From the NCBI GenBank assembly GCA_000934665.2, contig JYFJ02001216.1, forward strand, positions 62,001 through 87,059: DNA of 25,059 bases. Direction: 5' to 3'. This stretch comes from Catajapyx aquilonaris (lineage: Eukaryota). This document shows positions 291-24,770 of this stretch, piece after piece (the first letter of the stretch is position 1; each line of letters opens with the position of its first letter). A program made the position numbers and the translations under genes. The notes under the pieces are model-generated. The model was not told the DNA's origin. It did not search any database and saw only the letters and a program-made list of their open reading frames with translations.

Positions 291-1599
291 TGTTCTGGTT
301 GACTAGCATCTGGAAGGACGACCCTCAGTGTCAGGACATCCTCAATGCCACAATTCAAGTGTTGCAAGTGGTGCACGACAATTTGGGCTCCCACATCCCT
401 ACAGATGACAAGTCCCTTGACAAAGTCTGCAAGTAAGGGGAAACTCCATAATTTCTGAGGGGCAGTTTTAATATTGACGTTTATCGTACGATGTAGGGAG
501 TTCAGCCCCACTGAAAAAGAAATTTTGGACATTGTCGGGCCATGCATTCCATCATCACTGGATCCAGTGAAGGACATGGTGGTGGGAATAGTCAACGACT
601 TCGTCAAGTCCCTGTGCGATCCATCCCAGGATTTTCATAAGCGTAAGAACGGTTGCTTTATCATAGTTGGTAAAGTTTCAGCCACTATTTAAAAAAATGA
701 AAAACGCAATCACATAAAAGTTGCAAAAATACCTCACCTTACTGTTTATTTACGCAACAATAACAGTTGGTTTTCTGTCTCTCTCGTATGAGATTAAGGG
801 TCTGATTACAAGACTTCCCCAAACTTCTTTCTAGCAATCATTATCGAATCACTAGACTGTGACATCTTTCTGGTACAAGTGCTACTTGTTACATCGTTAC
901 CTTTTAATTTTTTAGAATGAATGTGTTGCAATAAAATCTATAAGTAATAATGTAACATGCAAAAATTCAGTGCAATAGGTACTCTGTAGACATCTCCTTG
1001 AAACAGTCTAATTATTATGTTTTCCAGTGTACCTGGAGTCTATTTCCTGCCTGCTGGCTAAAGGGGCTGATTCCTTGCCCTGCGACATTCAGTTTGCTCA
1101 GGACGTGGCCATCATCCTACCTCAAATACACAGCGTCACCGATGCGGTTAAACTCTGCTGGTGAGCATTAGTAATACTCTACAATATTATGATGACTATG
1201 CACTGAAATGCTGCACAGAGAGAAGACACACTGAACTGGAAGATAAGAAATATACAATCTGTTTTCTTCATGATCCAGCCCTGTTGAGCAAGTCACCTAC
1301 TGCCTCAACTCAACCACAACTCAAGACTGCGGCTCAGACGCAGCTGAGTTCGTCAACGAAGCTATTGGTAAACTGGCAGGCACATTGACGGTAATATAAG
1401 CACAGACGAATTTTCCGAATGAGGTTTCTCTTCCTTCATCGCATATGGGCTTTTCTTTATGTCCTTAACAATTCGTACTTTTCTTTCCTTCCAGTCTATT
1501 TGCCCGTGGATTGGTCCAGACTGCAGCGGATGGCTTACCCCGTCTCCTACACCAGCAGTATTCACAACAGAACCATCGTTCAGGAAGAAGTTCAACTGA
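291..1599 (+). CDS. Gene A (5'-partial): second module of a secreted cysteine-rich two-domain protein (DUF19-like family)
   Basis: GT-AG exons 291-432, 497-642, 1028-1160, 1279-1390 and 1495-1599 splice in frame to FWLTSIWKDDPQCQDILNATIQVLQVVHDNLGSHIPTDDKSLDKVCKEFSPTEKEILDIVGPCIP...YLESISCLLAKGADSLPCDIQF...KLCCPVEQVTYCLNSTTTQDCGSDAAEFVNEAIGKLAGTLTSICPWIGPDCSGWLTPSPTPAVFTTEPSFRKKFN*. Exon lengths are identical to gene B exons 7-11. Upstream exons lie outside the window. Confidence 0.9.
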
Positions 1600-1742
1600 C
1601 TGCCTTACACAACTTGCTGTCTGATACAACCTTCACCTTGCCCTGCTTAATTCCAGTTACCAATTTAGAAGTAAATGCTAAAATTTTTCCGATTTTATGC
1701 GAAACAGTTTATACACATTGTGAAGAATTTGTGTATAGTGTC

Positions 1743-1748
1743 AATAAA
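1743..1748 (+). promoter_or_regulatory. Candidate polyadenylation signal of gene A
   Basis: AATAAA ~145 nt after the stop codon, conserved in the paralogous context downstream of gene B (8471-8476). Confidence 0.5.
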
Positions 1749-2146
1749 ATCATACCCAGAGTAAGTGTATTATTTTGTCCGGATTTATTAATACGCCAGG
1801 TAAGCAACATACAGCAACTCTTATAAACTTTCAGATTAAGTTCAAAGAATTGTTGTCCATCATGCGCAACAACAACTAGGATCAACAATAATTGGTTTTA
1901 GGACATCTCGTAATCCCGTTCTAAGGGACTTTAGATATTAACCTTCAAAATGTTTTTAGCACCCATTATTTAAAACCTTTACTTAAAGGTTGCCGGTACG
2001 TTACGTGCTGCTCAGAATGTGAATTTCAAGTATGGTCTATAATACTACTACTGCTGCTACATATGACATTCTTCTTATTTTCTGTGTCCCGTCGTACAAT
2101 TATTCATAATACCATTCACTTATGTCAAGGTGTAAATTGCTTTCAG

Positions 2147-2799
2147 GAGCATTGTCATCGGCAATTCAAGACGAGGCAAAGAGTCGCTATAGATATTCTT
2201 AAAGTGATCGATAAAAATTTCTGATATCATATTCCTCTCAATGGGGACGAGCTGGACTTGGATTGCAAATATGCGACGCTTACAATATATTATTTATTCA
2301 CTAATAATGTAAATGTACACCTAGTCGCCAACATTATCGTTCGCTTCGGATCTTTCAGAAGCTTTCCTTCAGCTCAAGACGATATCATAAAAATTATAAT
2401 TCCTTCCATTCCGCCATCAGTGTTGTCTCTCCTTAGTGAAGTGGTTCCCATTATTATCTACCCTTTCGTGCCGAATATTTGCTGGCAAGAGAAAGATCTG
2501 CACGATTATAAGGTCATACGCGCTGGTTTGACCACAGTGACATTCATTACTTTCCAAATAACATGTTAGCATGTTACATGCAACAATCATAGGGAATCCT
2601 TCCAATGGCTGTGTTCCTCCTTTCCGCAAAGACTTTCTATCTTGCTTTCTACACTGAACAGGTTTCCATTAACCTATGTGCAACGAATATTAATCCATGA
2701 CAAGCAGGAACACAACAAGAGTTTTTAAGGTTTTCATTATTTTCACTGACTGTTGTGGACATGATTCCCTGCCTACTGACGTAATTCAATATAAATCAA
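2147..2799 (+). pseudogene. Decayed gene C-like pseudogene (remnants of exons 2-3 and flanking introns)
   Basis: The exon 2 remnant (2147-2268) has a 17-nt deletion relative to 9876-10014, an in-frame TGA at 2222-2224 and a GT>AT donor. The exon 3 remnant (2359-2507) also has a GT>AT donor. The signal exon and exon 4 are deleted, and homology ends before exon 5. Confidence 0.88.
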
Positions 2800-4961
2800 G
2801 CTGCTACTACTACCATGTATGGCGTCATAGCAAGTCGGACATTTATTACGAGAACACTCCTGGGACAATGTTGGCGCATTTGAGACCAAACTGCCTGCCA
2901 TGCACGACAGGTGCTCTTTATAGTGTATGATGTAGGTCTGCGGAGACACTATACATGCTGAAGAGGTGAAATCTGCAGCACTCGGTCATGCAATGAAACG
3001 CCTTGTTGCCCTGAATGGCAGTACTGGCAGGGTCATTTGTTTAGCTTCTATATGATACATTGAGGCAAACTTTGTCTGCTATCAGTCGATAAATTTTATT
3101 TCCTCACTACAATGCAAATAATGCAGCTAGGAAATTTATGAAACATAATATGTTTCACCATCCACTATTGTGTTCTTTCCATGCGGAATTGGTCAGTTTG
3201 GGGGAACACTTTGGCAAAATTGGAGTGGAACTTATAAAGGACCTGTTCAAAGTTATCCTGGCAAAGAAAGGCCACCCTCATGGCCCAATGATTCGTGTCA
3301 TTAGATTGGAGCAGATCACTGAAACTTGGCAACGCAGGGGAGTTGGATCAAAATGTTGCTGTCCAGCCACTCTAATATATGTCATTCAATGGAAGCATGC
3401 TTCTAAAGGGTGACCTTCATCAGTTTGGAGAAAGAGTTCGCCCTTGCTTCGCGAACGAACGCCATCTTGCGTCCGGAAGCTTCGTCTATCTCTTTCCTCT
3501 CTCTCTTTTAGAGGAGAGTGAGAGAGAGGAGCGAGGGAGAGAGGGGGAGATACGCGATTGGGCAAACGCGTGATATCACGATGGGGCTTGCATTTCGCAT
3601 ATTGATTTGCGGACGCGGCATTTCTCTCACACGAATATTCTTACAACATTTTTACGGGGTAAAAACCACACGAGTTTTCCTGAGTCTAAATCAACTAATA
3701 AAACAGTTCACCACGTGACAACATGTTTTGAATCCTACCAAGGCCGCCAGGTAGCAACCCCTACCACATCAAAGATACAGTCAGTGGCGAACACAGCGGC
3801 CTTTAGCGTCAAACTAGGTGCATAGATTATACACTACAAGATGCGCAAGATGGTTGCCGTTTGGGTAGCGGGGCTACTTGAACAGGTCCTTTGGTCAGGA
3901 GCGATGACAATACACGAATGCGGAATGATGTATGGAAAGTGGGACAGGTCATTGGAGATCCCCCTACCACCACGTGACTCAGCCAGGCAAGAGTAACCGA
4001 GGTCAACGAGCAAGGTTAAGGTTATCCTGGCCAGACTGTAACCAGCATGACAAAACTTTATCACTGATGATAACCATCCTTCCTTTGTTCAATATTCACA
4101 ATCTCCAGTACGGATGCGGCTATGTCTGGGGGAAAAAAGGGATGGAGTAAATGCATGAAATTAATTGCTGCGTAATATTAATAACATTAATACTCTGAAA
4201 TATTGAAGATTATGACTACACAAATATTACTGCACAATTATACTGACATATTTAATTTCCTTTTTTCATCCACTCATTGTGGTTAATTATTTTTGATGCC
4301 TCATTTTTTCCTTGTGGAGTCACACTTTGGAGTGAAGTAAGTCGATCTCCAAAACATAATCATGTTTGCTGTAAGCGGAACAGTAATTAGTGCTAACGCC
4401 AAAAACGCACTCAAATGGGGAAATTCACATTTGGTGCATAATTTTATTTGAGAGGTGGATATTGTGCTCCACATATTCTCTTCGTGCATATTTTAATGCA
4501 CTCCAGGTTTTCAGTGATGAGTCTTAGTCCGCGCCCATCAGGAACTGATTATAGTCCTCTGAAGAAGTTACTCTTATATACTGATGGACTGTGCATGACA
4601 ATATGAGGAAATCCTCCTATTACACAAGCAAAGTCAGCTTGTTATGCACAATGTGGCAATATTAATACACGTGGGACTCGTTAAGATAGGGGATTGCTAA
4701 ATCCAATTGCAACATTGTATTACTCATTATGTAAGAAACTATTGCCGATTTCTCATGAATCTGAGCCAATTATGTATTTTTATTGTCATATTCGTGATCA
4801 GCCCATTGAAATCTTTAATAAATGTCTACTTTAATCTCATAAATTTCAATTTTGTCAAAATTTGTTGGCCAGTGTTATCCGAGAGCGAATCAAAAAATTT
4901 CATTTGGTAATCGATAAATAAGATACGTTGTAGTCACTATCTATCCTCAAGGAAGAGAGAG

Positions 4962-4968
4962 TATAAAA
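4962..4968 (+). promoter_or_regulatory. Candidate TATA box of gene B
   Basis: TATAAAA 58 nt upstream of the ATG at 5020. Confidence 0.45.
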
Positions 4969-5019
4969 ATGTAAATCAGCTTTCGAGGAAGTGATTGAGC
5001 GAACAGCACTGCTGGCAAG

Positions 5020-8000
5020 ATGATTTTCGCTAAGCTCTGCACATTATCTGCAATTCTGGCCGGTAAATGTATACCTTTTGGTGCAATGCCCACATCTCCA
5101 GTTCGAGTTTAAAGAGAAGCTGTAATGTTACAAAAATTGCAGCAAATCGCAACAGAACACTGGGTTACTGGAGTCCACAACTCAAATATTCTCGACTAAA
5201 CTTGAACTGCACTGCTGGGCAGTGCATTCCACTGTTGTTTAATGTCTACACTCTGCAATGTTCACATAGGCCTATTATTCAAAGCTCCCTTTTGCATGCT
5301 ATTAACCTAGTAATAAATTATTGTTTCAGTGGCATCGTCTTCGGTAATTAAAGACGATCCCGGCAGCAACGACACGCTTCAAGTAGCTATTGATATTCTC
5401 AAAGTTGTTGACGCAAATTTCGGATGGCACATTCCTTTCAATGGCGACGAGCTGGATTTTGATTGCAAGTACGAACATTGTCATTTCTTTGCTTATTAAG
5501 TAGTCTATTAATGTGAACAATACATCCGTTTTTATTAATCGGTTGTGCCTTTCAGAAACTACCCATCAGCCGCAGCAGACATCGTCACTATCATATTATT
5601 TTCTCCATGTGTTCCGCCATTAATGCAGTACATTATTGAGGCAGCGTTTTCTATGTTTGTCGACCCATTCGTTAGTGACCTGTGTGACCCGAAGAATGAA
5701 CTTCATGATTGTAAGGCCCCATATAGTCAGTGCACCCACAGTGCAATTAATTCCAAATAATTCCTTTCAGTGTATCTGGAGTCGGCTGTATGCTTGAGCT
5801 CCAACTGGACTCATTCTTTGCCCTGCAGTCTCCAACTGGCCAAAGAAGCCGTGTCCATCGTGCCAAATATTCACTGCTCTGATGACGTTTGCCAACTGAT
5901 GTGGTCCGTATAACACAGAGTGGTCCAACGAGCAAGGTCCTTACGCGGAATGAGCATATTGTAATGCGTCCATTACAAAAGTTGAAATTAACTGCACGCT
6001 CCTATTTGTCGATTAAAATATCAAAAGCAGAACATCTGCCGGCGTCATTCACCTTTCTTGTAGGACCACCCTGCACAATTATTAAATTCATAACTCAAAC
6101 TGAAATAATGATTAATGACTTAATGATCTGCACAGTCCCTTGGAACAGGCCAGATACTGCATTGACAAACAAGTAAACAAGGATTGTGGACCGGATGCAG
6201 TCAAGTTCATCAACATGGCTGCTAAGCGGCTGGGAGGATACATGCTATGGGTATCACCATGACTCTGAAACATGTCTGAAACTTATACTATAATATTGTT
6301 ACAATATTGCATACAGTAGAAGATAATAATGCAATGCAGCCATATTCACCTATTGTCGCCATTTCGTTATTTTGCTATCCTTTGGAAGGGTCTCCAAAGG
6401 TTCATAATGGAAAAAAACAGTCGTAAAGTTAAGGCTATCTTGCACAGGGAAATGGCTAAATTATCTTAAGATTCAGAAGAGATATTTTGTTTTCTATTTG
6501 ACAAGATACTTTACAGTATAACTGTGTTGTGTGATTGTGTCTGTAGGAGTTGTGCCACTCGCCCGACTGCGACGGCTGGCTGACTGATGCGCCACCACTT
6601 GACGTTACTGAATCACCAGAGCAAGAAACATTCATGCAGGAGATGCACAGGAGGAAGGAAGGTGATTGTACGTGCATATTGCATTCTTTCAAAAATTTAA
6701 ATTGGGGCTTTCTTCATTTAAATGTTACTCAAAATTTACACACTGTATGTGAGTAATATGTTGCCTGACATTTCTAAAAATTCGCAAATTTAACTGTTAG
6801 AATATGTTAATGTTATTCAATATTGTGACTGCATGGGCTGAAATTTAAGTCGTGGTGCTTATTTTGAATAAACACAAATGCCTAAAATTTTAAAATGTAG
6901 TTCTATTGTAGAATACGTATGTCATTTCCTTGTCTGCAATTATTATTATTTTTACAAATATTCTATATCTCCTTTCAGTGTCCTGGTTGACCAGCATCAG
7001 GAAGGATGACCCTCAATGTCAGGACATCCTCAATGCCACAATTCAAGTGTTGCAAGTGGTGAACGACAATTTGGGGTCCCACATCCCTACAGATGACAAG
7101 TCCCTTGACAAAGTCTGCAAGTAAGGGAAAACTTAATAATTGTTTCTGAGGCGCAGTATTAATATTCACGCTTATTGTACCATGTAGGGTGTTCAACGCC
7201 ACTGAAAAAGAAATTTTGGACATAGCCGGGCCATGCATCCCATCATCATTGGACCATGTCAAGGAAATGGTGTTGAACATTGTCAACGACTTCGTCATGT
7301 CCCTGTGCGATCCATCCCAGGATTTTCATAAGCGTAAGAACGGTTGCTTTACATAGTTGGTAAAGTTGGAGCCACCATTTAAAAAATGAAAAGCGCAATC
7401 ACATGAAAGTTTCCAAAATACGTCACCTTACTGTTTCATTGCGCAACAATAACAGTTGGATTTCTGTTTCTCTCGTATGATATTAAGTGTCTGATTACAA
7501 AACTTCCACAAACTTATTTCTAGTAATTATTATCGAATCACTAGACTACATCTTTCTGGCACAAGTGCTTCTGGTTACATCGTTACTCTTTAATTATTGT
7601 TATTTAGAATGAATGTATTGCGCTAAAATCTATATAGAGTAATAATATAACATGTGAATGCAGTGCAGCAAGGAGTCTGCAGACATCTCCGTGAAACAGT
7701 CTAATAAATGATATTTTCCAGTGTACCTGGAGTCTATTTCCTGCCTGCTGACTAATGGGACGGATTCCTTGCCCTGCGACATTCAGTTCGCACAGGACGT
7801 GGCCATCATCCTACCTCAAATACACGGAGCCTCTGATGCGATTAAACTCTGCTGGTGAGCATTAGTAATATTATGTCTATGCACTGAAATGCTGCACAGA
7901 GAGAAGACACACTGAACTGGAAGATATGAAACATACAATCTGTTTTATTCGCGATCCCCAGCCCTGTTGCGCAAGTCACCTACTGCCTCAACTCAACCAC

Positions 8001-8302
8001 AACTCAAGACTGCGGATCAGACGCAGCTGAATTCGTCAACGAAGCTATTGATAAACTGGCAGGCCCATTAACGGTAATATAAGCACAGACAAATTTTCTT
8101 TACAAGGCCTTGTTCACACGAATGAGCTTTCTTTTCCTACATCGCATATGGGCTTTTCTTTATGTCCTTAACAATTCGTACTTTTCTTTCATTCCAGTCT
8201 CTATGCTTGTTTCTTGGTCCAGACTGCAGCGGATGGCTTACCCCATCTCCTACACCAGCAGTATTTACAACAGAACCATCGTTCAGGAAGAAGTTCAACT
8301 AA
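5020..8302 (+). CDS. Gene B: complete secreted cysteine-rich two-domain protein, 447 aa (DUF19-like family)
   Basis: Eleven exons: 5020-5062, 5330-5468, 5556-5710, 5771-5903, 6136-6250, 6547-6667, 6979-7120, 7188-7333, 7722-7854, 7962-8073, 8198-8302. Total 1344 nt with no internal stop. N-terminus MIFAKLCTLSAILAVASSS is signal-peptide-like; 12 Cys per module; ends FRKKFN*. The exon 6 donor could alternatively follow 6661 (same phase). Confidence 0.9.
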
Positions 8303-8470
8303 ATGGCTTTACACAGCGAAAAGGGGGACAACTTGCTGTCTGATGCAACCTGTACCTTACCCTGCTTGATTCAAGTTACCAATTTAGGAGCAAATGCAAA
8401 AAAAACAACATATATCCGGTTTTATGCACATTAGGTCATACACGCTTTGAAGAATTTATGTAACAGTGTC

Positions 8471-8476
8471 AATAAA
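8471..8476 (+). promoter_or_regulatory. Candidate polyadenylation signal of gene B
   Basis: AATAAA conserved with the gene A copy at 1743-1748. Confidence 0.5.
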
Positions 8477-8785
8477 GTTATGCCCAGAGTAAAAGTATCA
8501 TTTTCCCCTGATTTATTAATTACTTTTAAATGCCAAAAGAAACATACGTACAACGCTTAGAAACTTTCAGAATAAGTCATTGGTTCAAATTGTTGTCCAT
8601 CATGTACAACAATGAATAACTAGGATCAACATCATTTGATCCTGATATACATTACGGATATGTATTATGCATCTCGTAAACCAGTTCTAAGGGTTTTATT
8701 CAAAAAGTTTTTAACGCGCATTTTAAAAAACCTCTCACATCGAAAAACTCAAAGATTGCCGGTAAGTCACGTGCTGCTCATGTAA

Positions 8786-9117
8786 TTTTTTTTGAAGTAC
8801 CCCGTGATGACCTGTTTCGTCTATAGGGGGGTGGATTACCACCATTGGAGGGAAAGGGCTGTTGTCTATTTTTTAATACGCTCGAACCCACGGGCAGGGA
8901 AACTGGGAGGGGATGTGCAAAGTGCGTGTGCACAGACGTTGATGTGCCGTTTTGTGAACTCCCCCTGGTGGCATATGTGGAAGGATCGCCACCCGAAACG
9001 AAGCCAGAGACGGTCTTACTCTGCGCGAGATGAAGGGGGGAACCCCGGGTTGGGATCGAACCCGGGACCTTAACATCCGCGGGCGCATACGTTACCGCAG
9101 CGCCACTTCGCCTCCCC
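8786..9117 (-). mobile_element. tRNA-derived SINE
   Basis: The minus-strand 5' end has Pol III A-box TGGCGCTGCGG and B-box GGTTCGATCCC. There is an A8 tail (T run 8786-8793) and a 13-bp TSD GCTGCTCATGTAA at 8773-8785 and 9118-9130. The paralogous site at ~2007-2025 is empty. Confidence 0.88.
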
Positions 9118-9488
9118 GCTGCTCATGTAAATTTAAAGTGTGGCCTATTATGCTGAAATGATTATTTATAGTCAATCAGCACTTTATATTATCCAATGTG
9201 TCTATTTGTTATTATCTACGTTAATGACACAGATTATTACAGATCATTGGTATTGTGTGTCAGGGACAGCTAGAGAGGGTTTGGGTACAGCATCGCGGAA
9301 AACGCTTGAACTATGGACTTGGGGAGGTGAAACCTCCTGTGATCTGAAACTGAATCACTAAAATATCGCAAGATAGTATAGGCATATCGAATGAGATATA
9401 ACTCAGAACTTGCAATCAGTGGCTTTATCATCACGAAAGTAGCTGAAGGTTCTGCTTTCGGGGAATAAGAGATTCGGCGACGGGCAAG

Positions 9489-12400
9489 ATGATTTCTTCA
9501 AAACTCTGCATATTAGCTGTCATCTTGGCGGGTATGTGTCTCTAAAGTAGTCTACAAAATCTATCATCAAGGAACTGGGATTAAACATGATTTCGCATGT
9601 ATTTGAAGAATTACTCAATAATTACGTATTAAATAATATTCATAACATCCACTGTACTAGCCGACTATCCCCCCACATCATTCGCACCTTTAATTACTTT
9701 TGAAAATTATTTTCCATCACAGTGTTCGCTGATCACCAAAAATTATAAAGAAAATAGTACTTATTGATCCAAAATACTAAACTAACTGCTCTGCATGACA
9801 TTCTTCTTATTTTCTGCGTCGCGTCGTACGATTATTCATAGTACACTTCACTAGGTGTAAATATATTGCTTTCAGGAGCATTGTCATCGGCGATTAAAGA
9901 CGACGCAAAGAAGGAAGACCTTCTTCAAGTCGCAATAGATATTCTCAAAGTGATCGATGCAAATTTTGGATACCATATTCCTCTCAACAGGGAGGAGCTG
10001 GACTTGGATTGCAAGTATGCGATACTTCCATTTTATTTACTGACTAATGTGTATGTACACCTACTCAGCAACATTATTATTCGTCTTGCACCTTTCAGAA
10101 ACTTTCCATCAGCTCAAAACGATATCATTAAAATCATATCTCCTTCCATTCCGCCATCAGTGTTGCCTCTTCTTAGCGAAGTTGTTCCCATTATTATCGA
10201 CCCTTTCGTGCAGAATATTTGCGGGCAGGAGAAGGATCTGCATGACTGTAAGGTCATGTGAGTTGGTTTGCCCACACTCTCATTTCTTAATTTCCCAAAA
10301 AACAGCAACATTTAGGGTACTTGGCATCAGCTGAGTGCTTGAACGCCAACTGGACTCATTCTGTGCCTTGCGGTCTGCAACTGGCCAAAGAGTGTCTGGC
10401 CATCATACCAAACATTCAAGATGCGGGGAGCATTTGCCAACTGGTGTGGTGAGTTACAATCATAGGGAATCCTTCCAATAGCGGAGTCCCTCTTTCCCTT
10501 AACCCTTTGATGACGGAGTTTTTGAGGGATTGCATTACCCCAGGGCCTGAGTTTTTTTCCCCCTTTTCCGGAAATTTTATGACCTCGCCGATTTTCTTGA
10601 AATTCGGTCCATTGGTAGCCCACACCAAGGGATGAAAAACGCACCTATAGTTACCTGATAAAAATGACCTTGTGACCCAATTTTGAGGGGGGCAGAGGTC
10701 AAATCATAAAATTTCGACCTCCCTGATTTTCTTCAAATTCGGTGCATTAGTAGCCCACACCAAGGGATGACAAACCCACCTATAGTTCCCTGCTCGACAT
10801 GACCCTGTGACCCATATTGGAGGGGGACATATGTCAATGCACCGAATTTCAAGAAAATCGGTGGGGGCTGTGCGATATCCGACATTGCATATCGACTTTC
10901 GATACTCAAAAAATATCGAATCAAAGTCGATATATCGAAAATCGAAAAACCGACATCGAAAAATATCGAAAAATATCGCAAACCGACATCGAACCGACAT
11001 CGAAAATATCGCAAAATATCGCGATGTCGGTTTGCGATATTTTGCGATGTGCGATATTTTGCGATGTCGGTTCGATGTCGGTTTGCGATATTTTGCAATG
11101 TCGGTTTTTCGATTTTCGATATATCGACTTCGATGCGATATTTTTTTAGTATCGAAAGTCGATATGCAATTTCGGATGTCGCGCAGCCCTACCTATCGGT
11201 GAGGTCGGAATTTTATGGTTTGACATCAGCCCCCCTCAAAATTGGGTCACGAGGTCATTTTGATCAGGTAACTATAGGTGCGTTTTTCATCCCTTGGGGT
11301 GGGCTACCAATGCACCGAATTTCAAGAAAATCGGTGAGGTTGAATTTTTTTGCGTTGAAAAATGACCCAAGTTGGCAGGGCAAATCTTCGGACATCATAT
11401 GATGTCCGTAGGCCCTCCAGCAATGCAAGCTCGGAAATCATATGATGGCCGTAGGCAGCAAAGGGTTAAAGACTTTTACACTGAACAGGTTTCCATTAAC
11501 CTATACGTATGTGCAATAAAATATTAATTCATGACACGCAGAGATTTTAATGTTTACATTATTTCCACTTACTGTTGTGGACATGATTCACTGCCTACAC
11601 ATAATATAATTGAATATAAATCAATAATCATCATTAACATACACATTGATACACAGCCCTCTGGAGCAGGCAGGATTCTGCATAGACGAGCAATTGAATG
11701 CAGATTGTGGCTCAGACTCGGTCAAGTTCTTCAACAAGGCAGCTATGGAGCTAGGAGGTGACATGTTTCAGGTATGTTAGTTGGAATGCCAATTATTAGA
11801 ATGGCTATACTTACAAGTAAATAATTTGTCATTATAATAGAAATGTTGTCACACACAAAATATCATTTTTTTCAATGTGCTTATTAACTTTATAATATGG
11901 TACTCTACGTCCAAAATAAAATGTTTCGAGCAATCAAAATGTGATTTCATGGATTTCACATTATAAAATTTAATCCTGCTCTAATTCGTAGTTGCGGGCG
12001 TGCAATCACTTGAATTATTGGAAGTGAATTAATGAACAGGAGAGTGATTATATTTGTGATGAAGTGAAGTCGCGATTTTAACACTTTGCTGCCTACGGCC
12101 ATCATATGATTTCCGGAGATTTGCCCTGCCAACTTGGGTCATTTTTCAACGCAAAAAATTTCAACCTCACCGATTTTCTTGAAATTCGGTGCATTGGTAG
12201 CCCACACCAAGAGATGAAAAACGCACCTATAATGACCTGATGAAAGTGACCCTGTGACCCAATTTTGAGTGGGGCAGAGGTCAAATCATAAAATTCCGAC
12301 CTCGCCGATTATCTTCAAATTCGGTGCATTAGTAGCCCACACCAAGGGATGACAAACCCACATATAGTTCCCTGCTCGACATGACCATGTGACCCATATT

Positions 12401-14358: not shown

Positions 14359-14613
14359 ACACATAAGGACAGGGCCAACATCCAAACCAGAGGCAGATGA
14401 ATTGATCACCCCTGCGGACGCAGAGAAAACTGCAGAGAACCTGAAGAATATTGTCTCGTGGCCTGTACATCCTGCAACACACTCATGTTCCTTATGGTAA
14501 TTATATGAGTATATACTCCACGATTACGTAGCAACATGACCTTCGCCGCTATGTAATTTCTGGGATGAATAAATGAGCTCTTTTCATTGTACTGAACATG
14601 AAGAAAGTGCCTA

Positions 14614-14850: not shown

Positions 14851-15331
14851 TACTTTATAAACACATCTTGACTTGAGGCATGTGATGGAGCTCATTTTAC
14901 ATCTTTCTTGCCCCAACTTCACTAAGAAAGGACTAAACCACACATTTTCTATGAGCTAAGGAGGGAAACAAGAAGAAAGTTCATGTGATGATGTTTTGTT
15001 TACTTCAGAGTAAAAGTTTTCTATGCCTATATTGTTAGTCTGAGTATTGCGAACAAATACATTATCCTTCATAATATTGCCATTCACAGCTTATAACCGT
15101 ACTGCATAATGAGTGGACGAATGAGAAAGTACTACGTTAAAGGGCAGTTCTGATTGCTGGAAATGCATTTTTGAGGTGTGGTGTACTGTACGTTGCATTG
15201 CTCAATCAGGTCAGACTGTCCTCACATGACTCGTCAGGCAGAGATAAGATAACATACTGTGGAAAAATGCAATCAATATCTCTGGAGGAAAAATATAATC
15301 ATAAACACTTATCTCGATTGTCGCAAAAGGA

Positions 15332-15337
15332 TTCAGT
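15332..15337 (+). promoter_or_regulatory. Candidate initiator (TCAGT) of gene D
   Basis: TTCAGT ~20 nt before the ATG at 15355, with an AT-rich TATAATCATAAA ~30-40 nt upstream. Confidence 0.35.
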
Positions 15338-15354
15338 CGCTGTATGTCACCATT

Positions 15355-18287
15355 ATGGCCGCAATGATGACTTATACAAAATTCCGCGTCTTAGCTGTGA
15401 TCTTGGCCGGTATGTCTATGTTACGTGTTATTCTCATTCCCCTAGACTATAGACCTATAGAGTAACACTGGTTAAATTGATGAGATTCATTATAATGATA
15501 CTCATTGGTTATTTAATCAATTCATCATTTTATACTTAGACACGTTGATTCAATAAGCTCGGTTGCTTTCCGTTATGCTTTTTTCTGAAGAAATGTACAG
15601 TGATGCACAGTGATGTGTGTGACTCCAATTGGTTTAACGTCACAAAGTACGTCACCATCACAGGCATTATTAATCTGCACTTAATGACATGTATGGAAAT
15701 GTGTACGTCATAATTATTTCATGATTCGAACATCTTTCAGCATTTCTTTCAGGTGCATTGTCTTCGGTGACATCGGACTCTCCTAAGTGCGACAACTTGA
15801 AAGTCACAATAGATGTTCTCAAAGTAGTGGACGCTAATTTTGGCTGGCATATTCCTCTCAACAGTACCGAGTTGGACTTGGCCTGCAAGTAAGGGTAGTA
15901 TAAGTTTGGAGATTTTAAACCATCCTGTTCTTGCAGGACTTTTCTGTTCAAGGCTTTACCTTTACATCACGATGGTATCATACGCGGTACTCATAAATTA
16001 CGTTTTCATTGTTAACACTGCCTATGTCTTTTAGGAACTTCAAGCCTGCCGAAAATGAAATCCTGGCCATTATAAAGCCATGTGTTCCGCCTTCACTGCA
16101 GGATATTGTTATTGGCCTGATTCCCACGATTGTCGATCCTTTCGTAATGAACATCTGTGGAGGAGATAAAGAACTACATGACCGTAAGGCTGCAAAATTC
16201 CTGAGATGTACAGCACACCATAATTATAACGATATTATTTACTTTTAGTGTACTTGGAATCGGCTGTGTGCTTGAATGCCAACTGGACCAATTCCCTTCC
16301 CTGTGGACTGCAACTGGCTAAAGAGTCGGTGTCCACAATTCCAACTTTTCACGATATATACGACATATGCTCCCTGATGTGGTAAGTTGTGTCAGAGATG
16401 GTGTTCTTTTCCAAGCAAACAGTCCAACAATGGAGGAGGAGCAAATGTTATGGGTTGTTCGCTTCAGAAATCAGTTGGTAGAGAAGCAACAACCACTACG
16501 AGTTTGATTGGATTGTTTCAGCCAATTGTAAAACGTCTGGTTTCCGTTGGTAAACAATATTCAGAATCCTGTATTATCCTCTTTTACCCCCATCTTGGAC
16601 AAGCTGGGCAGCAAAGCGCACCACTCTGTTTAATATTAATTAGCCTAACTTGTGTTTGTAACGGTACGTCGGGGATGGGTGGGAATAACGTACAAGGGTG
16701 GGCTAATAACTAGTATATTACAATATGATACATAAATACAGTGAGAAGGAATAGGAAGGAAGAAAGGAAGGAAGGACCTGATCAGGGCAAAGGATAGGGT
16801 GAAAGAGGGCGAGCCCACCAGTCCAACTCCTATTTATGGAGTCCCTCACTCTGGGGGTCAAGGGTAGGTGGCTTAGGGGAGGATTGGAAAAGGGTTGCAA
16901 GAAGGACCCGGGGTCATGACCCGATAAGTCTATAGAGGAGAGGAGAGGGTGAGCTGGACATTAAATAGAAGTTTAAAGAGAGCGGCCTGGCATTGCTATA
17001 CGCCCTCTCACCTTATCAGGGTGCTAACCGTCTTAAGACACCATGTACTCAACCATAAGGGCACGGAGCCTTTAGTCATCCAAGCACAGCTTGGATGACT
17101 AAAGGCTCCGTGCATAAGGGTACCAGCGTACCTAAGCCAACCGCATTACACCGCGGGGTCCCAAATTCTGTGAATGCAAACGCGTCTCAAAGTAATGCCG
17201 ACCAGTAGGTGAAAAAAAGAAAAAAAAGAAAAGGGAGACCGAGAGGGTCTGAGGAACCCCCTAGGTCAAAAGAAAACACAAGACGACCACAACAAAACTA
17301 GCAGTCGGTGTCGTAAACGACCACGGCCGCTTGAGAGAGATTGAGCAATCTCTCTCAAGCGGCCGTGGTAAATGACCCAACCGGACAGGCCACGGCCCCC
17401 AGGGAGACCAAGCAGGCGCAAGGCGCGACCCACAAGGAACCCCTGGGGAGACATCCAAACTAAAAGGGTAAAAACTCTAAAACCTAATCCTCCACACTGG
17501 GGGGTGATCTGGACAGGAAGGGACTAATTAGCAGGAGGGGGAAGGTGGGTGGTGAGGAAGGACTGGTATATGTTATGATGTATAACTGCACATTTTTCAA
17601 CTGAATTATGTGCCACGATAAACGCGAAAATTAACAGCCCCCTGGAGCAGGCCAAATACTGCGTAGACCAGCAAGTGCTAATGGACTGCGGCCCAGACGC
17701 GGTCGACTTCATCAACAAGCTGGCCTTGGAACTGGGAGGCGACCTGCTGCAGGTATTTGGGTTAATTATGAAATTTTAACACACGGGTTATATCAGGATC
17801 TTTGTAGGGTAGTAATACTGCCCATGGTAACAATCTTCATTGATCAAAAGGGGTATAAACAATACAACATCTCGCCTGCATTAGCGCATTGTTGGAGATC
17901 ACTTAGGTAAATCACCACAAATTGAATAAATTGCAGTTCTGAGACAGAATAAATGCGACAAAATAATACAATGCAAGCCTAAATATTCATTTCACGATGA
18001 CCCCGACGACTTTTGACTTTCTGCTATATGCGGTCCGCAAAACTAGGTCCTCATTATTATTGCGCCTCTGTGTTGCTGATGTTGTATCCTATCTTTCAGA
18101 TGTTGTGCCCAACACCGAACTGCGATGGCTGGTTCACTACCTCTCCGCCAGTAATTGAAAACAATCCATCCTCACAGAATATGAAAATATATACATCTCG
18201 GCAGGATATAATATACGGAAACAAACCAGTTCCATCAATTGTGGAGGGTGACCATCAGTCTGAAGGTGAACGTATTTAATAATGATG

Positions 18288-18377
<90 letters not shown>

Positions 18378-21300
18378 AGAGAAAAAACTTGTGCTTCAAC
18401 AAGCATATGTTCAGTGCACTCAAAAAAATAATAGTTGAACAAACCAAAAACATGTTTAATTCAACAAAATAGGAAGGTTAATATAAAGCCTGCTAAAAAT
18501 TTGGTTGAAGTAACCAAAAATATTTGGTTGTCGTTCTACAAAAATATTTGGTTGTCGTTCTACAAAAATATTTGGTTGATTGATGTAACCAACATTTTTG
18601 TTGATATGGTGTACATTTGGTTGTGGTAGCTAAGGTTTTGGTTGAAACGATCGCATAGGCCCTACCCTTCAACCAAAATGTTTTGGTTATACTTCAACCA
18701 ATTCTGTTTTTTCAATTCAGCTAAGATTTTGGTGAAAGCAACCAAATCTCACTCAACCAAATAGTTTTGGTTACTGTAACCATTTCGGTTTTTTCAGTGT
18801 GAACTTCATTTCGGCCATTTGTACGTTCAGCGAACGTTCCGAAGCAAGTTCCGACGTCTCAGTCTTGATATCCCAAAGCCTCAGTTTAAAATTAAATTCA
18901 AATTTATATATTGATTATTGCTGTCTAAATTTATCTTGTTAACTACTGCTATGCAGGTCCACTGGCAGCTTTCACTTGATATTTAGAGTAAGGTTATCGT
19001 TCCTCTTTAGTATTTCAGCAGTCTTTGTTTTGGGAAAATATTTTCATCATAATTATGAGGTATAACTCCAACAGAGAGAATAAATGACATACAGTTAGTC
19101 ACAGTCAAGTATCAATAAAAAATTGCACAATATGTTCCAACCATCTCAGTTTAGGCTATATACACATGGAGTTGGTTGATGTGAGGTTATATTCTTTCGT
19201 TTTTAACGTAAGTGTTCTTATAGGTTCGTATCTTCTTTTTATTTATTAAATATAAGAACTTAGGCATTGGTATACAATGACACAATTCGCCGCTGTAAGG
19301 CATTATGGATTCAACATTTTTAAAACGCGCCATGACGTCTCGTGCGCATACCATGTGCAATGCTCACAGGCTAATAACATTATACAATACTTTGAAATAC
19401 TGGTACTGTAACAAAACAAGGTGTAAAAATGTCCAGCCACGACGGACGTGACTGGAGCGGACCACTTTTTACTTCCATCATATTAAAACATGCAATAAAG
19501 CATGTAGATGAGATTGAATAATAGCTCGCTACTATTGCAATGCAGGAAGATACTCTAGAGGTGATTGCAATAACGTTCTTCTTAACATTCTCCGACTTTA
19601 TTGTGCCCTTATCCCTATATATATAAAGCTCAAAATTTGTACATATATTTATTTATTTATTTATTTATCACGCCTAATTAAGCCACTTCCCGGGCACGGA
19701 GAGCGCTCAAATTTCTCAGAGCCATGTCTTACATATCACTGACCCCGAGAAAAGTCCCAAACCCGAACTTTCTTGAGTCTAAGGGGGGTTTTCAGCAGAT
19801 TAAGCAATTGCCTATAGCAACCCTGGCTGTCAACAAGCCCGAAGGGAGGATCTGCCTCTCTCACTCACGTTCTAAAATGAAATCAGCATTGCATATTCAA
19901 CAATGAAAACAATAGAACAACGGGCAGGTTGGCAAGAATAATATAATTGCAGTATACGAGTAGGGTATTGTAACAATGAACGGTTGGAGTACTTAGGGGA
20001 GTGCCGAGATCAACAATACCGAACAATACGGTACTGTACAGTTCATATATCGATAGAACCTGCCACAAGGCACCAGGAAACACAGAGGAAAGAAGAGAAG
20101 GTATACGTTCGTGTGTTTGGTCTCAGAAGTGTTGGAGTGATGCGTTCATGTTCAGATTGTGTTGTCATCAAATATTTAATCTGATACCAAATTTTCAAGT
20201 GTAATTTTAAAACCGGGGTTAATGCGAAACGGCGTAAAATGGAGCGGCGTAAAACGGGTACTTCCCGCATGGGAAATCCTTCTTGGCCGCTTCACAACCA
20301 GCAAGCTATCATAATTTCCACGTTATAACAATTTTTCAATTTAAAAATTTTATGATGTCATATTCAAACCTGCGTTAATGTGGAACGGCGTAAAATGGAG
20401 GGGTGTAAAACGGGTACCTACCGTATTATTTTGATAATTGGACGGTGTTATGCAATAATGCATCAACCCACATGAGAACAGTTATGAGAAAAAGGGCTTT
20501 TAAAAGGTCATACCTGTGAAATTAATTCAGTGTTCTTTCCGGTCATTTATGGCAGAAGTATGCAGATTTCACCTGCGTGATTTTAACTGAATGAAGTAGG
20601 ATCCTTTAGGTCAGCGGTTCTTAGCCTGGGGTGCCCGCACCTCCAGGGGGTGCGAGGTGGCTTCCCTGGGGGTGCGAGCAAGGTGCACCTCTAAACAAGA
20701 GTTAATATAAACGGGTCTAACTATGAACGTAATCAATCACCCCTGGTAAATGGGGTGCGTCAAGGACCCACATATTGTCTACAAAGTGGTGCGGAGGCCC
20801 TAAAAGGTTAAGAACCTCTGCTGTAGGTTTATGTTCCTGGGCTTGGCTCTATTTTGGCATTTTTGGGGGTTGACCCAGTATTGCATAACACTGTCCAATA
20901 TATTATCCCTCCGCTTTCGATCACTTCTGTGTGTACGTTGACTGACACCAGGTTCAACATATGTACCAGACACTACACACGGATTTGCTGCTATAAATTA
21001 ATTAATAAATAACATATTTTGATAATCTACGTATGCCTTACCATTTTGTAATGTAAGGCACCAGAATTTTGTTGGTGATTACCATAGAAACAGGCATGTA
21101 AATGGTTTCAAATTTTGCACTTCCCCCAATTTTTTTATCCAAATTTTTTTATACCCCCTCCCCCCAATGTATCTCCACCTTGCCGTGGTGGTGGGCTTGC
21201 GTTTTCTCATGATCCTGAAGAACTATGCCGGCGGTAGTTTCGTCCACTGGTAGGGCCGCCCAAGTCGGACAGGTCTTTGGGATAGGAGGCAGACTATAAG

Positions 21301-24300
21301 AGAGATACCAGTCTTTCCTCTCTTCTTTTTCCTCTTTGTTTCTCTCTCCATCTGTCCCACCTTTTTGTATTCTGATAACCAGCACTTAGCCATAGTTGCG
21401 TGGCTCTTTATTACGCAAACAAACCAGAATTTTTACACCCTTCCAGAGCCTGCATATGCAATGGAATGAGCAGTTTTGCATTTAATATTGCCTGAGATCT
21501 GAAAAGATTTCGGTGTAATTACCCACGCTATTTTTTTCCCCGTGCGAAGAACGGGTACCGCTGCTAGTTTAACAATAAATGCAAATGGTAGCCTCGTCTA
21601 TGTTAATTCTGGTGATATCTACCCCAGTTGGGAAGGAGCATCCAATGTAGGCTATATGGTGTACGGTGTATGTAAATTTGACAAACGATCTGTTTGGCAT
21701 TAGCTTCTCAGAATGAGTGTCGTTTGTCTTCAAACATAACAGTAGATATGTGTTACATTTTTTGAATTACGGTTCTACAGTAGATCATTCTATAGGTATG
21801 GGGTACACTGTACCAATGGGCGTAGCCAGGATTTCATAATACGTATTATACTAGCAGGTTACACCGGCGCACAGTGATCTAGATTCGGAAAACCCTGGAC
21901 AAAATCAGAATTGTTTAATTTGTAGTATGATATTCCCATTCATGCCTGCATAATCAATGACAATCGAGCTATACTCTGGCCTATAGTTTGTTCCTGAAAA
22001 AAAAGTTATTCGGCAGCGCGGAGGCATTTAAATTTGGGGTTAATCGTTGTTCTGAATAGACATGCACGGCAGGCCTATTTTAACCATTTGCTAAATGTTC
22101 TGAAACATATGTCAACGGTAATTTTGGTTACACTGTGTTGTAGAGTATACATTTACTTGCAAAATTGTTCATATTTCATTTTTGTAAATTATAAACATAA
22201 TGATTAAATCGAATTTTGGTGTAGCAGTTCAAATGTGTCGTTTCAAAAATTAAATCGAGTCATACAAAAAAATGGACAAAAAATGACATTTTAATTTTTG
22301 GTGCGTAATGTGCGAAATAGTGTGTAGGTGAAGGGTCAACAAAGTCCAGCTGCTAAAACTTGCTAATTTTATCGTAATTCGTAATTTTCGCCGTGGCGGT
22401 ATTTCCACCCTCGCGCTCGAGCTAATGCCTGAAACAAATAGTGCACGGGCTGGAGTCCAGTGACGGGAAGGGGGGAGAAATTCGAAGTGTGGCCAAACTG
22501 ACCAGATTAGTGACACCTTGATACCTGTTGATATCGTACATTACTTCCTATGTTTCCTCGACGGAGGAGGGAATATAATTTTGGTGTGCGTGCGAGTGAA
22601 AGGCAAGTCTTGAGGAAATAATAATCAATATACTATGGCTTATTTTCGGGGCTGTCGTTATAATAATTTCCTATACTTTATCCTTGAATTATCCTTAATT
22701 ATTTTATCTATGAGACACACACATTTACATACAATTATATGTATAATGATATATACGTCGTACGCATATAATTATGTATATCTTGTGGCCGGCAAATTTG
22801 TACCTTGATTATAATTATATTGAAACGCAGAGGTCAGATAATTTCTGCAACTGTTTTGGGTTTTTAATTAAATATTCTTCCCATTCTGCAGTGCCGGGGA
22901 GGGGGGTGTTGTTTAACTTTTTTCTCCGCCCCCGCATACGATTATTTATCCATATGTATACCAAAATAGGAGACATCGATGGACCTTTAAAACCAAGTCA
23001 AGTTCAAATCTGTAACTGTTTTCGTTTTCAAATGAAAAGGGGTGGGACGCTCTGGTCAAAAATGGGGTCTGGGGTTTATCGTTCGTCTTTTGTTTTTCTC
23101 CCCCTCTCGTGATTTTTGCGTTATCAACATACCTACACAAATTTCCATCGACTGAGCTTGAGGCAAAAGGTACCTTTGTAACCTTTACATTTTCCCAAGA
23201 AAATAGACGCAAAGATTCAACCTCCATTTGCCCCCTATTATTTTGTCCAATCCCTGTACGTGAACATCTGTCAATAATTTGACAATTTTGACTTCAAATT
23301 CGTACTCGCCGACTAGGAAAACCCCTAAACACTTATTTTTATCCTTCTAGGATGATAACTATAATTGTGACCAGGGTTTTCCGAATCTAGATCACTGCGG
23401 CGTTGCCCGGGTACGTTGGGGGTGCTGGTAAAGGTAGGGGTACATACACAGTATTTTAGGAAGTGTGTGTGCGTTTGTAAAAATTTCCCTTCCATACACT
23501 CGAAACTCGATATGTCTTAAAATAGGCCCTATAAGTTGCAATAAGCCAAAGTTTGTCACTATCTGTGATAGATTACCTGCTTGTCTTAATAGCGTATAGT
23601 CGACACAGATATTCTGATTGGATGTGTAAAAAGAGGTATGCGGATGGAGTTGGCCCAGGAAAAGACTGCACAGTCACGTGTTTTTTCCCCTGCATTTTTA
23701 ACCCCTTGACCAACCCCACTTCACACCCCCACCTCGTTACATATGTTTGCTCTGAAGAACTTTAGAAATGTACGTACAGATGCATGGTGGGAAATTTTGT
23801 TTTCAACACGGAGTAATATTTGTAAATACTGTCTTATTTTATTGCATTTATTATTGTGTTATTATATATTAGTCTAGTTTCAAATCCCACAAAATCCCAG
23901 AATGACCATACGATACGAACTCACGTGAGGTGGCCAAATAGCTTAATTGGTGAATGATTTGAATTTACGGCAATGGTTTTTTTTTGCATAAAGGCATTTC
24001 CATGGGAATGTGAATTGATATATTATTATTTGATTTTTATGTAAGTTAATTGTTGAGGCCCGAGAAGAGAGAAGATTCGGGAATATGCGTGTTGTGGGAG
24101 TTAGGTTCATTTTCGGAAGCTGAAACATGCGTCGTTAGATTCCTTGGAAAATGTAACCCCCGATATGCTAATTGAAGGCGGTGTAAGGGCCTTCCCCTGG
24201 ATTTCTATAAGGGACAAACATCCAAACTCACAAACTCACAAACTTCCTTATTTATAGATATAGAAAAGATAAATTTATTATCAGACTGGGAAAAATCATG

Positions 24301-24770
24301 TCTACTATAGTAGATGATAGTGCCACAACGGAAAGGTTGTGGAATGAGCGTCTATATGACAAGTTACTTGTGTGTTTATTACTTTTTAACAGTAAAATTG
24401 CATATCTCCTTTCAGTATCCTGGCTGACCAACATCAGGAAGGATGACCATCAGTGTCAGGACATCCTCAATGTCACAATTCAAGTGTTGCAAGTGGTGCA
24501 CGACAATTTGGGGTCCCACATCCCTACAGATGACAAGTCCCTCGAAAAAGTCTGCAAGTAAGGCATATTTTAATACTTTCGGAGGTGCATTTTCAATATC
24601 CATGTTTCTGGTCCCATGCAGGGTGTTCAGCCCCACTCTAACAGAAATTTTGGACATTGCCGGACCATGCATCCCATCATCAATGGACTATATAGTGAAT
24701 ACATTCCTGATTGGTAATATCAAAGGCTTCATGGCGGCCCTTTGCGATCCATCCCAGGAACTTCATAACC
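15355..24770 (+). CDS. Gene D (3'-partial): secreted cysteine-rich two-domain paralog
   Basis: Exons 15355-15409, 15753-15888, 16035-16183, 16249-16381, 17638-17752, 18100-18271, 24416-24557, 24622-24770. Signal peptide MAAMMTYTKFRVLAVILAGALSS; 12 Cys in module 1; same intron phases as gene B. The join across the 6.1-kb intron is inferred from phase and homology. Remaining exons lie beyond the window. Confidence 0.82.
17062..17112. mobile_element. 51-bp perfect hairpin insertion (micro-MITE)
   Basis: CACGGAGCCTTTAGTCATCCAAGC-ACA-GCTTGGATGACTAAAGGCTCCGTG, flanked by direct repeat CATAAGGG (17054-17061, 17113-17120). Confidence 0.75.
17322..17367. mobile_element. 46-bp perfect hairpin insertion (micro-MITE)
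   Basis: CACGGCCGCTTGAGAGAGATTG-AG-CAATCTCTCTCAAGCGGCCGTG, flanked by GTAAACGAC / GTAAATGAC. Confidence 0.72.
18277..18374. repeat. Compound (AAT)n(GAT)n microsatellite
   Basis: Directly visible trinucleotide runs immediately after exon 6 of gene D. Confidence 0.97.
18417..18799. mobile_element. CACTA/EnSpm-like MITE
   Basis: Termini CACTCAAAAAA / TTTTTTCAGTG with a 2-bp TG duplication on both sides. The interior has many AACCAA/TTGGTT motifs and a short tandem duplication (caaaaatatttggttgtcgttcta). Confidence 0.65.
20210..20425. repeat. Imperfect ~58-bp direct repeat pair, possibly decayed DNA transposon ends
   Basis: aaacc..gttaatg.g.aacggcgtaaaatggag.gg.gtaaaacgggtac at 20210-20267 and 20366-20425. 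Confidence 0.55.
20612..20820. mobile_element. hAT (Charlie-like) MITE
   Basis: TIRs CAGCGGTTCTTAGCCT / AGGTTAAGAACCTCTG; 8-bp TSD CTTTAGGT / CTGTAGGT; GGGGTGCG subterminal repeats. Confidence 0.82.
21175..21310 (+). mobile_element. 5' UTR fragment of an RTE-clade (BovB/Expander-like) LINE or a derived SINE
   Basis: CCACCTTGCCGTGGTGGTGGGCTTGCG...CTATGCCGGCGG...GGTAGGGCCGCCCAAGTCGGACAGGTC matches my recollection of the conserved RTE 5' end. No ORF follows. Confidence 0.6.
21539..21567 (+). mobile_element. Helitron 3' terminus (5' end not identified)
   Basis: Hairpin CCCGT-GCGAAGA-ACGGG followed 8 nt later by CTAG|T. Confidence 0.6.
21870..23397. mobile_element. Non-autonomous Transib-like DNA transposon (~1.5 kb)
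   Basis: Perfect 27-bp TIR CAGTGATCTAGATTCGGAAAACCCTGG (21872-21898 / 23371-23397). The left end starts CACAGTG. GC-rich 5-bp TSD CGGCG at 21865-21869 and 23398-23402. The right end lacks the terminal TG. No transposase ORF. Confidence 0.75.

Follow-up and report, generated by a model that had tools for sequence, protein, structure and literature searches.

What kind of genes fill a 25,059-base stretch of the Catajapyx aquilonaris genome (contig JYFJ02001216.1, positions 62,001 to 87,059; hereafter called the window), and how did their copies come to stand side by side? A first-pass annotation of this DNA had described a tandem cluster of secreted proteins with two domains and 24 cysteines, running from position 291 to position 24770 and undergoing birth and death; both limits coincide with the first and last exon boundaries of the gene models presented here. 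The G+C content of the window is 35 to 48%, and searches with ARAGORN and against Rfam gave no tRNA or Rfam match in it. Short exons separated by GT-AG introns, together with AATAAA signals and a TATA box, suggest the split genes of a eukaryote, most likely an animal. Judged from the sequence, the window holds a real tandem cluster of such animal-type split genes, predicted to encode secreted glycoproteins with two 12-cysteine (12-Cys) modules each. We regard the genes and their architecture as highly probable. The wider interpretation that we favor, in which these tandem genes form a birth-and-death array of secreted two-domain, disulfide-stapled glycoproteins with an extracellular binding or recognition role, appears rather probable as a whole, and the binding mechanism within it is proposed tentatively.

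The array was delineated by an all-against-all BLASTP comparison of stop-to-stop open reading frames (ORFs) and by tblastn with the model of gene 2 described below. Five exon types, E1 to E5, recurred in a constant order on the plus strand at eight places, which contain seven copies of a five-exon, 12-Cys module of about 210 amino acids (aa) and one decayed fragment. When a profile of the module was compared with every ORF of at least 12 aa on both strands, 33 strong matches were obtained (E = 6.9e-10 to 2.3e-22), all of them on the plus strand and inside the eight places; the best match elsewhere had E = 3.2. Since the profile was made from the same copies, only the lack of matches elsewhere is informative. 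No module remnant was found by this search within 18266-24415. Gene models were built from the conserved canonical splice sites in the DNA around each ORF piece, and all 31 modelled introns are of the GT-AG type. The gene plan consists of a signal-peptide exon, a module of type B, a module of type A, a stop codon and an AATAAA signal. The earlier description of a signal exon followed by two homologous modules in the same orientation is borne out by the models of genes 2, 3 and 4. It had identified the modules rightly and left their order unstated, which is B and then A, the C-terminal A module ending in the stop codon.

Gene 2 is intact, and its parts are the following.

4962-4968, plus strand: TATAAAA box, 52 nt 5' of the ATG of gene 2, read from the sequence.
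5020-5062, plus strand: exon 1 of gene 2, the signal-peptide exon (MIFAKLCTLSAILA...), with a phase-1 donor.
5330-6661, plus strand: B module of gene 2, with 12 Cys; E1 5330-5468, E2 5556-5710, E3 5771-5903, E4 6136-6250 and E5 6547-6661 (phase-1 donor).
6979-8302, plus strand: A module of gene 2, with 12 Cys; E1 6979-7120, E2 7188-7333, E3 7722-7854, E4 7962-8073 and E5 8198-8302 (stop TAA at 8300-8302).

With canonical splice sites and a continuous frame, the 11 exons of gene 2 (5020-8302) amount to 1338 nt and encode 445 aa followed by TAA; an AATAAA is found at 8471. The protein has 25 Cys, one in the signal peptide and 24 in the mature protein. A length of 447 aa had been given earlier for a spliced protein of the cluster; that figure applies only to gene 3 read with an alternative acceptor (see below).

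The other copies are arranged on either side of gene 2. The previous count of four genes and one pseudogene holds for the copies found, with the correction that the left edge of the window truncates gene 1 and the right edge truncates gene 4.

291-1599, plus strand: gene 1, A module only, its B module and signal exon lying to the left of the window; E1 291-432, E2 497-642, E3 1028-1160, E4 1279-1390 and E5 1495-1599 (stop TGA at 1597-1599).
9489-9531, plus strand: signal-peptide exon of gene 3 (MISSKLCILAVILA...).
9876-12938, plus strand: B module of gene 3; E1 9876-10014, E2 10099-10247, E3 10316-10448, E4 11657-11771 and E5 12809-12938.
13082-14358, plus strand: A module of gene 3; E1 13082-13226, E2 13313-13458, E3 13577-13708, E4 13939-14050 and E5 14248-14358 (stop TAG).
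15355-15409, plus strand: signal-peptide exon of gene 4 (M(AAM)MTYTKFRVLAVILA...).
15753-18265, plus strand: B module of gene 4, with 12 Cys; E1 15753-15888, E2 16035-16183, E3 16249-16381, E4 17638-17752 and E5 18100-18265 (phase-1 donor).
24416-24770, plus strand: A-type module copy; E1 24416-24557 and E2 24622-24770, the remainder lying past the end of the window.

The A module of gene 1 is open for 211 aa up to its stop, has 12 Cys and GT-AG at every junction, and is followed by an AATAAA at 1743. Positions 1-290 have their paralogous counterpart in the intron between the B and A modules of gene 2 (1-2014 matches 6687-8780). Gene 3 has 11 exons and an AATAAA at 14568, and the introns after E3 and E4 of its B module carry repeat insertions. 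If the B module of gene 4 is joined to the A-type copy, the gene has 8 exons and is open for 348 aa up to the end of the window. The join across this gap of 6,150 nt is frame-compatible and stands as a predicted, unproven splice; the homology of the A-type copy to gene 2 begins just 39 nt before E1 (6940-7340 matches 24376-24777). Microsatellites are found right after E5 of the gene 4 B module (18277-18374; about 20 copies of TAA and 13 of ATG) and after the last A-type E2 (24855-24901; about 16 copies of CAA).

Do these modules belong to several genes or to one? The signal exon ends in phase 1, each module starts in phase 1 and the B module ends in phase 1, and exon lengths are conserved. Whole modules of such a phase 1-1 five-exon cassette could therefore be duplicated, lost or swapped without a break of the frame. 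Because this also lets any module join any other, and because all modules share one strand, they might in principle be exons of one very long multi-module gene. We consider this extremely improbable. All complete A modules close with an in-frame stop, with no phase-1 donor ahead of it, and an AATAAA follows 144, 169 and 210 nt 3' of the stop in genes 1, 2 and 3, respectively. In addition, the B modules of genes 2, 3 and 4 are each preceded by an ATG signal exon of their own, and a TATA box precedes gene 2. The stop and AATAAA of each gene, together with the TATAAAA before the ATG of gene 2, thus indicate separate units in the order signal, B, A. The TATA box of gene 2 is partly conserved upstream of gene 4, but gene 3 has none at the homologous place. 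Even so, gene 3 retains the ATG context GGCAAGATGATT.

The ends of the B modules offer a further observation. If the donor of the B-module E5 is skipped, a stop is reached after 31, 39 and 3 full codons past the split codon in genes 2, 3 and 4, respectively (read-through stretches 6662-6756, 12939-13057 and 18266-18277). These early stops make single-module, B-only isoforms possible. An AATAAA lies at 6867 in gene 2, 3' of the read-through stop.

To what extent are the copies constrained? The ratio of nonsynonymous to synonymous substitution rates (dN/dS) was estimated by the Nei-Gojobori method for 10 module pairs, and values of 0.22-0.38 were obtained for six of them: 0.38 between the A modules of genes 1 and 2, 0.24 and 0.28 between the A module of gene 3 and those of genes 2 and 1, and 0.22-0.34 among the B modules. 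The pairs of the gene 4 A-type copy with the A modules of genes 1 and 2 gave 0.68 and 1.05, and two pairs of an A with a B module were saturated and gave no value. These estimates show purifying selection on the modules. Between the A modules of genes 1 and 2, there was no gap column in 638 exon positions versus 55 in the introns, and in older module pairs the exons are 61-70% identical versus 47-56% for the introns. The model frame is stop-free in each exon, with the lowest or near-lowest ratio of nonsynonymous to synonymous differences per site (pN/pS) of the six frames, the counts being small. An origin of the modules as repeats or transposons was rejected, the purifying selection and the splice structure speaking against it.

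Open frames were also noted on the minus strand of the young A copies. They measure 145, 116 and 91 aa (200-634, 6978-7325 and 24415-24687), run across E2, the intron and E1, and are 70-83% identical to each other. Antisense coding was considered and set aside. The lengths of these frames vary from copy to copy and the frame is broken in gene 3, and so they are taken as a by-product of the sense strand; counting pN/pS frame by frame gave numbers too small for a decision.

Gene 3 departs from the intact state. Its exon 9 (E3 of the A module) has 132 nt instead of the 133 nt of its paralogues, a 1-bp deletion. With the homologous acceptor at 13577, the frame is broken and a TAA follows. An AG acceptor located 11 nt downstream, which places the exon start at 13588, would keep the frame of the entire gene open for 447 aa, with the loss of the conserved YLES motif. 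No further lesion is present in the conserved frame 3' of the deletion. The deletion could be of recent origin, its effect could be repaired by alternative splicing, or it could be an error of the assembly. The missing TATA box at the homologous place and the deletion in exon 9 may mean that gene 3 is losing expression and that part of the array is dying. A stronger form of this idea is that the array is mostly a graveyard, a set of relics of which no copy in the window is expressed or functional now. Besides the two features of gene 3, one fragment that is dead (see below) speaks for it, as do the 6.15 kb between the A copy of gene 4 and its presumed partner and the pN/pS above 1 in E2 of that copy. 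This stronger form is very unlikely, considering that no site of gene 2 is damaged and its frame is open throughout, that gene 1 and gene 4 are open for 211 and 348 codons, and that the low dN/dS of six of the 10 pairs, the lack of exon indels between the A modules of genes 1 and 2 and the lesion-free frame of gene 3 beyond its deletion all speak against it.

Next, the history of the array was read from its duplications and from the ages of its modules. One copy is dead.

2033-2800, plus strand: decayed B-type pseudogene fragment, a paralogue of 9765-11624 in gene 3, with remains of E1 at about 2146-2270 and of E2 at about 2357-2512.

The E1 of this fragment bears a 17-bp deletion and a TGA. 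In the donors of both E1 and E2, AT has replaced GT; E3 has been deleted, and nothing is left of E4 and E5. In line with this, the fragment gave profile matches for E1 and E2 only. It belongs to a segmental duplication in which 1-2014 corresponds to 6687-8780 and 2033-2563 to 9765-10304. The fragment lacks the 985-bp stretch that bears the promoter and signal exon of gene 3. This stretch (8780-9765), upstream of gene 3 and including the signal exon, has no counterpart at the paralogous position 2014-2033. Within it, 8778-9122 is G+C rich and open in several frames on both strands, possibly an insertion resembling a short interspersed nuclear element; ARAGORN detected no tRNA there.

The introns of the gene 3 B module contain several direct and inverted copies of a repeat of about 135-290 bp (10552-12718), and a self-complementary palindrome of 660 bp at 10699-11358. 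The repeats look like nested insertions of non-autonomous transposons; no Pfam domain was found in the ORFs of 10552-12718.

The two halves of the genes differ in age. Synonymous distances (dS) are 0.16-0.25 among the A modules of genes 1, 2 and 4, which are thus young, whereas the B modules of genes 2, 3 and 4 are old, with dS of 1.0-1.55. The discordance is clearest between genes 2 and 4, with a dS of 0.16 for the A modules versus 1.55 for the B modules. The A module of gene 3 is itself distant from the other A modules (dS of 1.3-1.5). The simplest reading of the discordant ages would be a recent duplication or gene conversion of A modules. Exchange of modules is indicated by the different ages of the two halves. 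As the first-pass annotation had proposed, intact, frameshifted and decayed copies coexist (gene 2, gene 3 and the fragment at 2033-2800), and the presence of such copies together with young (dS of about 0.17) and old (dS above 1) duplicates forms a birth-and-death pattern. The phase 1-1 modules, the young A versus old B modules and the recognition of E2 as the variable segment (see below) are features that go beyond that annotation.

What would the encoded proteins look like? The B and A modules of gene 2 are 39% identical over 207 aa. In an alignment of the seven modules, nine Cys columns are invariant in every module covering them, and two further columns have a Cys in five and six of the seven modules; the seventh Cys lies three columns apart between A-type and B-type modules. 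The Cys-bearing core spans about 180 alignment columns. In the B module of gene 3, which counts 11 Cys, columns 13 and 67 have lost their scaffold Cys and column 127 has an extra one. The joint loss of the first and third Cys in this module suggests that these two may form one disulfide. The fixed scaffold of 24 Cys described earlier is found in the mature protein of gene 2, and gene 3, with 23 Cys in the mature protein (alternative acceptor), deviates from it. The N-glycosylation sequons (NAT, NST and NWT) agree with the earlier description and fall at conserved columns: NAT, NIT or NVT at column 18 in all four A modules, NWT at column 112 in all three B modules, and NST or NAT at column 155 in the three complete A modules.

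Each module is followed by a linker or tail rich in Pro, Thr and Ser. Read by eye, the N termini begin with a basic n-region and continue into a hydrophobic core, with small residues occupying -3/-1. Gene 2 begins with MIFAK-LCTLSAILAVA, in which A-V-A precedes the SSS of exon 2, and in genes 3 and 4 the sequence ILAGA precedes LSS. The C termini are hydrophilic (...EPSFRKKFN), with no hydrophobic tail. A signal peptide without any other membrane segment, as judged by eye, is what is found in classical secretory proteins, and the combination of a signal-peptide-like N terminus with a hydrophilic C terminus points to a soluble secreted glycoprotein. Alternatively, the proteins could be structural or matrix components, for instance of a mucin-like coat, of a layer of egg or cuticle, or of a biomineral, instead of acting in ligand binding or recognition. 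The Pro/Thr/Ser-rich linkers and tails and the several sequons would fit such a role, and secreted, Cys-rich, repetitive proteins of this sort commonly expand in tandem. However, the short linkers measure about 20-45 aa and form no long repeat arrays, most of the protein consists of two compact conserved domains, and nothing ties the genes to a tissue; we therefore find a matrix role improbable.

The only contiguous frame spanning two exons is found in gene 3, where E1, a 29-aa read-through of the intron and E2 are joined; this frame was placed in an alignment with the remaining E1 and E2 pieces, and its structure was predicted with AlphaFold2. The model had helices over the E1 and E2 parts, with a mean predicted local distance difference test score (pLDDT) of 52.4 and a predicted template modelling score (pTM) of 0.34.

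Constraint is not uniform along the module. The claim that the segments between the cysteines are variable was confirmed, and E2 has the highest pN among E1 to E4. This holds in every pair compared; in the old pairs, pN was 0.29-0.36 in E2 versus 0.18-0.24 in E1 and E4. Between the A modules of genes 2 and 4, 22 of 48 residues differ in E2 (pN/pS of 1.42) versus 5 of 46 in the adjoining E1 (pN/pS of 0.43). The pattern of E2 would fit either diversifying selection or the relaxation of an orphan copy.

Does the module belong to a known family? All searches for relatives were made at the exon level with unspliced translations, and a distant relationship of the whole domain could escape them. The first-pass annotation had noted a resemblance to DUF19/T20D4.11-like domains and named DUF1397. 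No Pfam match upheld this: neither PF01579 (DUF19) nor DUF1397 was found among 33 exon pieces and the 139-aa two-exon ORF at 9842-10258 at E up to 10, or among 131 ORFs of at least 60 aa at E up to 0.01, and no family reached its cut-off in any of these sets. The rows below threshold were chance matches (TFIID_20kDa at E = 0.05, DPM3 at 0.018, STK_08120-like at 0.0034 and low-complexity matches). A profile of E1 and E2 gave no match at E up to 0.001 among 1.84 billion representative proteins. In a word-index library, E2 alone yielded 2 candidates, none of which scored, and the alignments of E3 and E4 yielded 463 and 7,712 candidates, none at E up to 1; the blanks in both libraries are weaker than they appear, their coverage of animals having no positive control. 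Comparison of E1 plus E2, E3 and E4 with profiles of PDB sequences gave nothing credible (best E = 0.33). Among metagenome contigs, 34 stretches carried the E4 pattern and 68 the E1 pattern, and tblastn confirmed none of them. Six 7-residue motifs of the proteins did not occur in the literature searched. In the ESM Atlas, the 130-aa E1-intron-E2 frame had low recognition (1409) and was matched with generic helical-repeat families and an unnamed, mostly nematode cluster. We thus read the family as lineage-restricted and not as a demonstrated member of any named family.

The strongest competing assignment is still DUF19: the modules would be divergent DUF19/T20D4.11-like domains (PF01579), and the cluster a two-domain branch of a large, mainly nematode family of secreted proteins. 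DUF19 is an extracellular domain of about 130 aa with 12 conserved cysteines, present in one or two copies per protein. The best Atlas feature match of the E1-E2 frame was the nematode cluster just mentioned (0.96), a lead only at such low recognition. In Caenorhabditis elegans, Table 2 of PMC3534327 lists 51 DUF19 genes for products of 140-220 aa; a signal peptide is present in 42, and infection induces 14. PMC8410859 puts the number of paralogues in this nematode above 80, several of them locally clustered and stress-induced; no RNA interference phenotype is reported there, and overexpression of T20D4.11 retards growth. Beyond nematodes, a table of PMC10058639 contains an oyster protein named "DUF19 domain-containing protein". 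Against this assignment, PF01579 was absent from all three sets of translations; the E1 and E2 profile and the word-index queries (E2 alone, aligned E3 and aligned E4) were likewise without a match; and the module here has about 175 aa plus a linker versus about 130 aa for DUF19. Made at the exon level, all these searches weigh little against a distant relationship. Membership in DUF19 is unlikely, yet of the alternatives it is the one we take most seriously.

The reading that we favor, a birth-and-death array of secreted binding or recognition proteins, can now be put together. Each gene would give rise to a secreted, N-glycosylated protein of about 445 aa with a cleaved signal peptide and no membrane anchor. 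Two homologous domains of about 175 aa, B and then A, would each be followed by the Pro/Thr/Ser-rich linker or tail, and each would hold 12 conserved cysteines, presumably in six disulfides, and be mostly helical, the helices being predicted at low confidence. The array would evolve by birth and death with exchange at the level of modules. A segment with an A module and the start of the next gene would have been duplicated recently, one copy decaying to the fragment; gene 3 would have acquired its 1-bp deletion freshly; and the A modules of genes 1, 2 and 4 are much younger than the B modules that they adjoin. The disulfide-stapled domains may serve as stable extracellular binding scaffolds. 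Their specificity would come from the tails and from the helix segment of E2, which lies between Cys3 and Cys4 and changes fast; on this view, the family would be diversifying as a set of secreted proteins for binding or recognition.

Several points weigh against this interpretation. All splice junctions are predictions from the sequence and from conservation among paralogues. The binding scaffold is suggested by general features only, and the roles put forward in the first-pass annotation (ligand binding, immunity, venom or saliva, pheromone transport) would be candidates at most; the exon-level searches found no homologue of known function, and the AlphaFold2 model is of low confidence and contains 29 intron-encoded residues. 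Gene 3 combines the frame-breaking deletion with the lack of a TATA box at the homologous place (9440-9488 compared with 4955-5019). Relaxed constraint on an orphan fragment, and not diversifying selection, might account for the high pN/pS that E2 shows in the A copy of gene 4, and the counts behind this ratio are small, with 28.5 nonsynonymous and 5.5 synonymous changes between the A modules of genes 2 and 4.

A bolder version goes further. The module would be an uncatalogued, all-helical domain with six disulfides in a phase 1-1 five-exon cassette, and the array a diversifying recognition repertoire, in which the E2 helix between Cys3 and Cys4 is positively selected and whole A modules are exchanged or converted between neighbours, as part of a lineage-specific innate-immune or gamete/pheromone system. 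We offer this as a long shot.

Why the locus deserves attention can be stated apart from these choices. Lineage-specific biology, in immunity, reproduction or chemical communication for example, often originates in tandemly expanding families of secreted Cys-rich proteins. The present family has a clean, repeatable architecture, is an orphan at the exon level among 1.84 billion representatives and has a localised fast-evolving segment. As it stands, it is an orphan gene family of a kind frequent in invertebrate genomes. Should its domain turn out to have a new fold, or to be a remote branch of DUF19, it would offer a handle on a family without known biochemical function even in C. elegans.

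How does the array compare with known systems? It resembles the DUF19 families in kind, with secreted proteins, 12 Cys, one or two domains, clustering and expansion, membership not being shown. A signal-peptide-like exon ahead of two modules, in keeping with secretion and with one or two domains per protein, is present in genes 2, 3 and 4, a feature that is not specific to that family. It is unlike DUF19 in the size of its domain, about 175 aa, and in having the two-domain form with a Pro/Thr-rich linker as the rule. The DUF1397 or 27-kDa hemolymph glycoproteins of insects are secreted, roughly of module size and of unknown function. The predicted proteins of the window are likewise secreted glycoproteins of roughly that size per module; they differ in giving no Pfam match to DUF1397 at the exon level, and to our knowledge neither a 12-Cys scaffold nor a two-module plan occurs in the DUF1397 family. 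Saposin-like proteins and insect odorant-binding proteins (including 12-Cys "Plus-C" or dimer forms) are disulfide-rich helical carriers from tandem-expanding families. The possible way of working is similar here, with secreted proteins whose predicted helical segments (in a low-confidence model) are stapled by cysteines. The Cys spacing in the window differs, however, from the six-Cys patterns of saposins or odorant-binding proteins, and no Pfam or PDB match was obtained. Finally, phase 1-1 extracellular modules characterize the exon-shuffling class of animal mosaic proteins. The classical ones (EGF, Ig, FN3 and kringle) usually occupy one or few exons and occur across many gene families, whereas the module of the window has five exons and is seen only in this array. 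It is nevertheless like them in having phase 1 at both of its boundaries, as the signal exon does, in standing in tandem within a gene, and in that its A copy has a history unlike that of the adjoining B copy.

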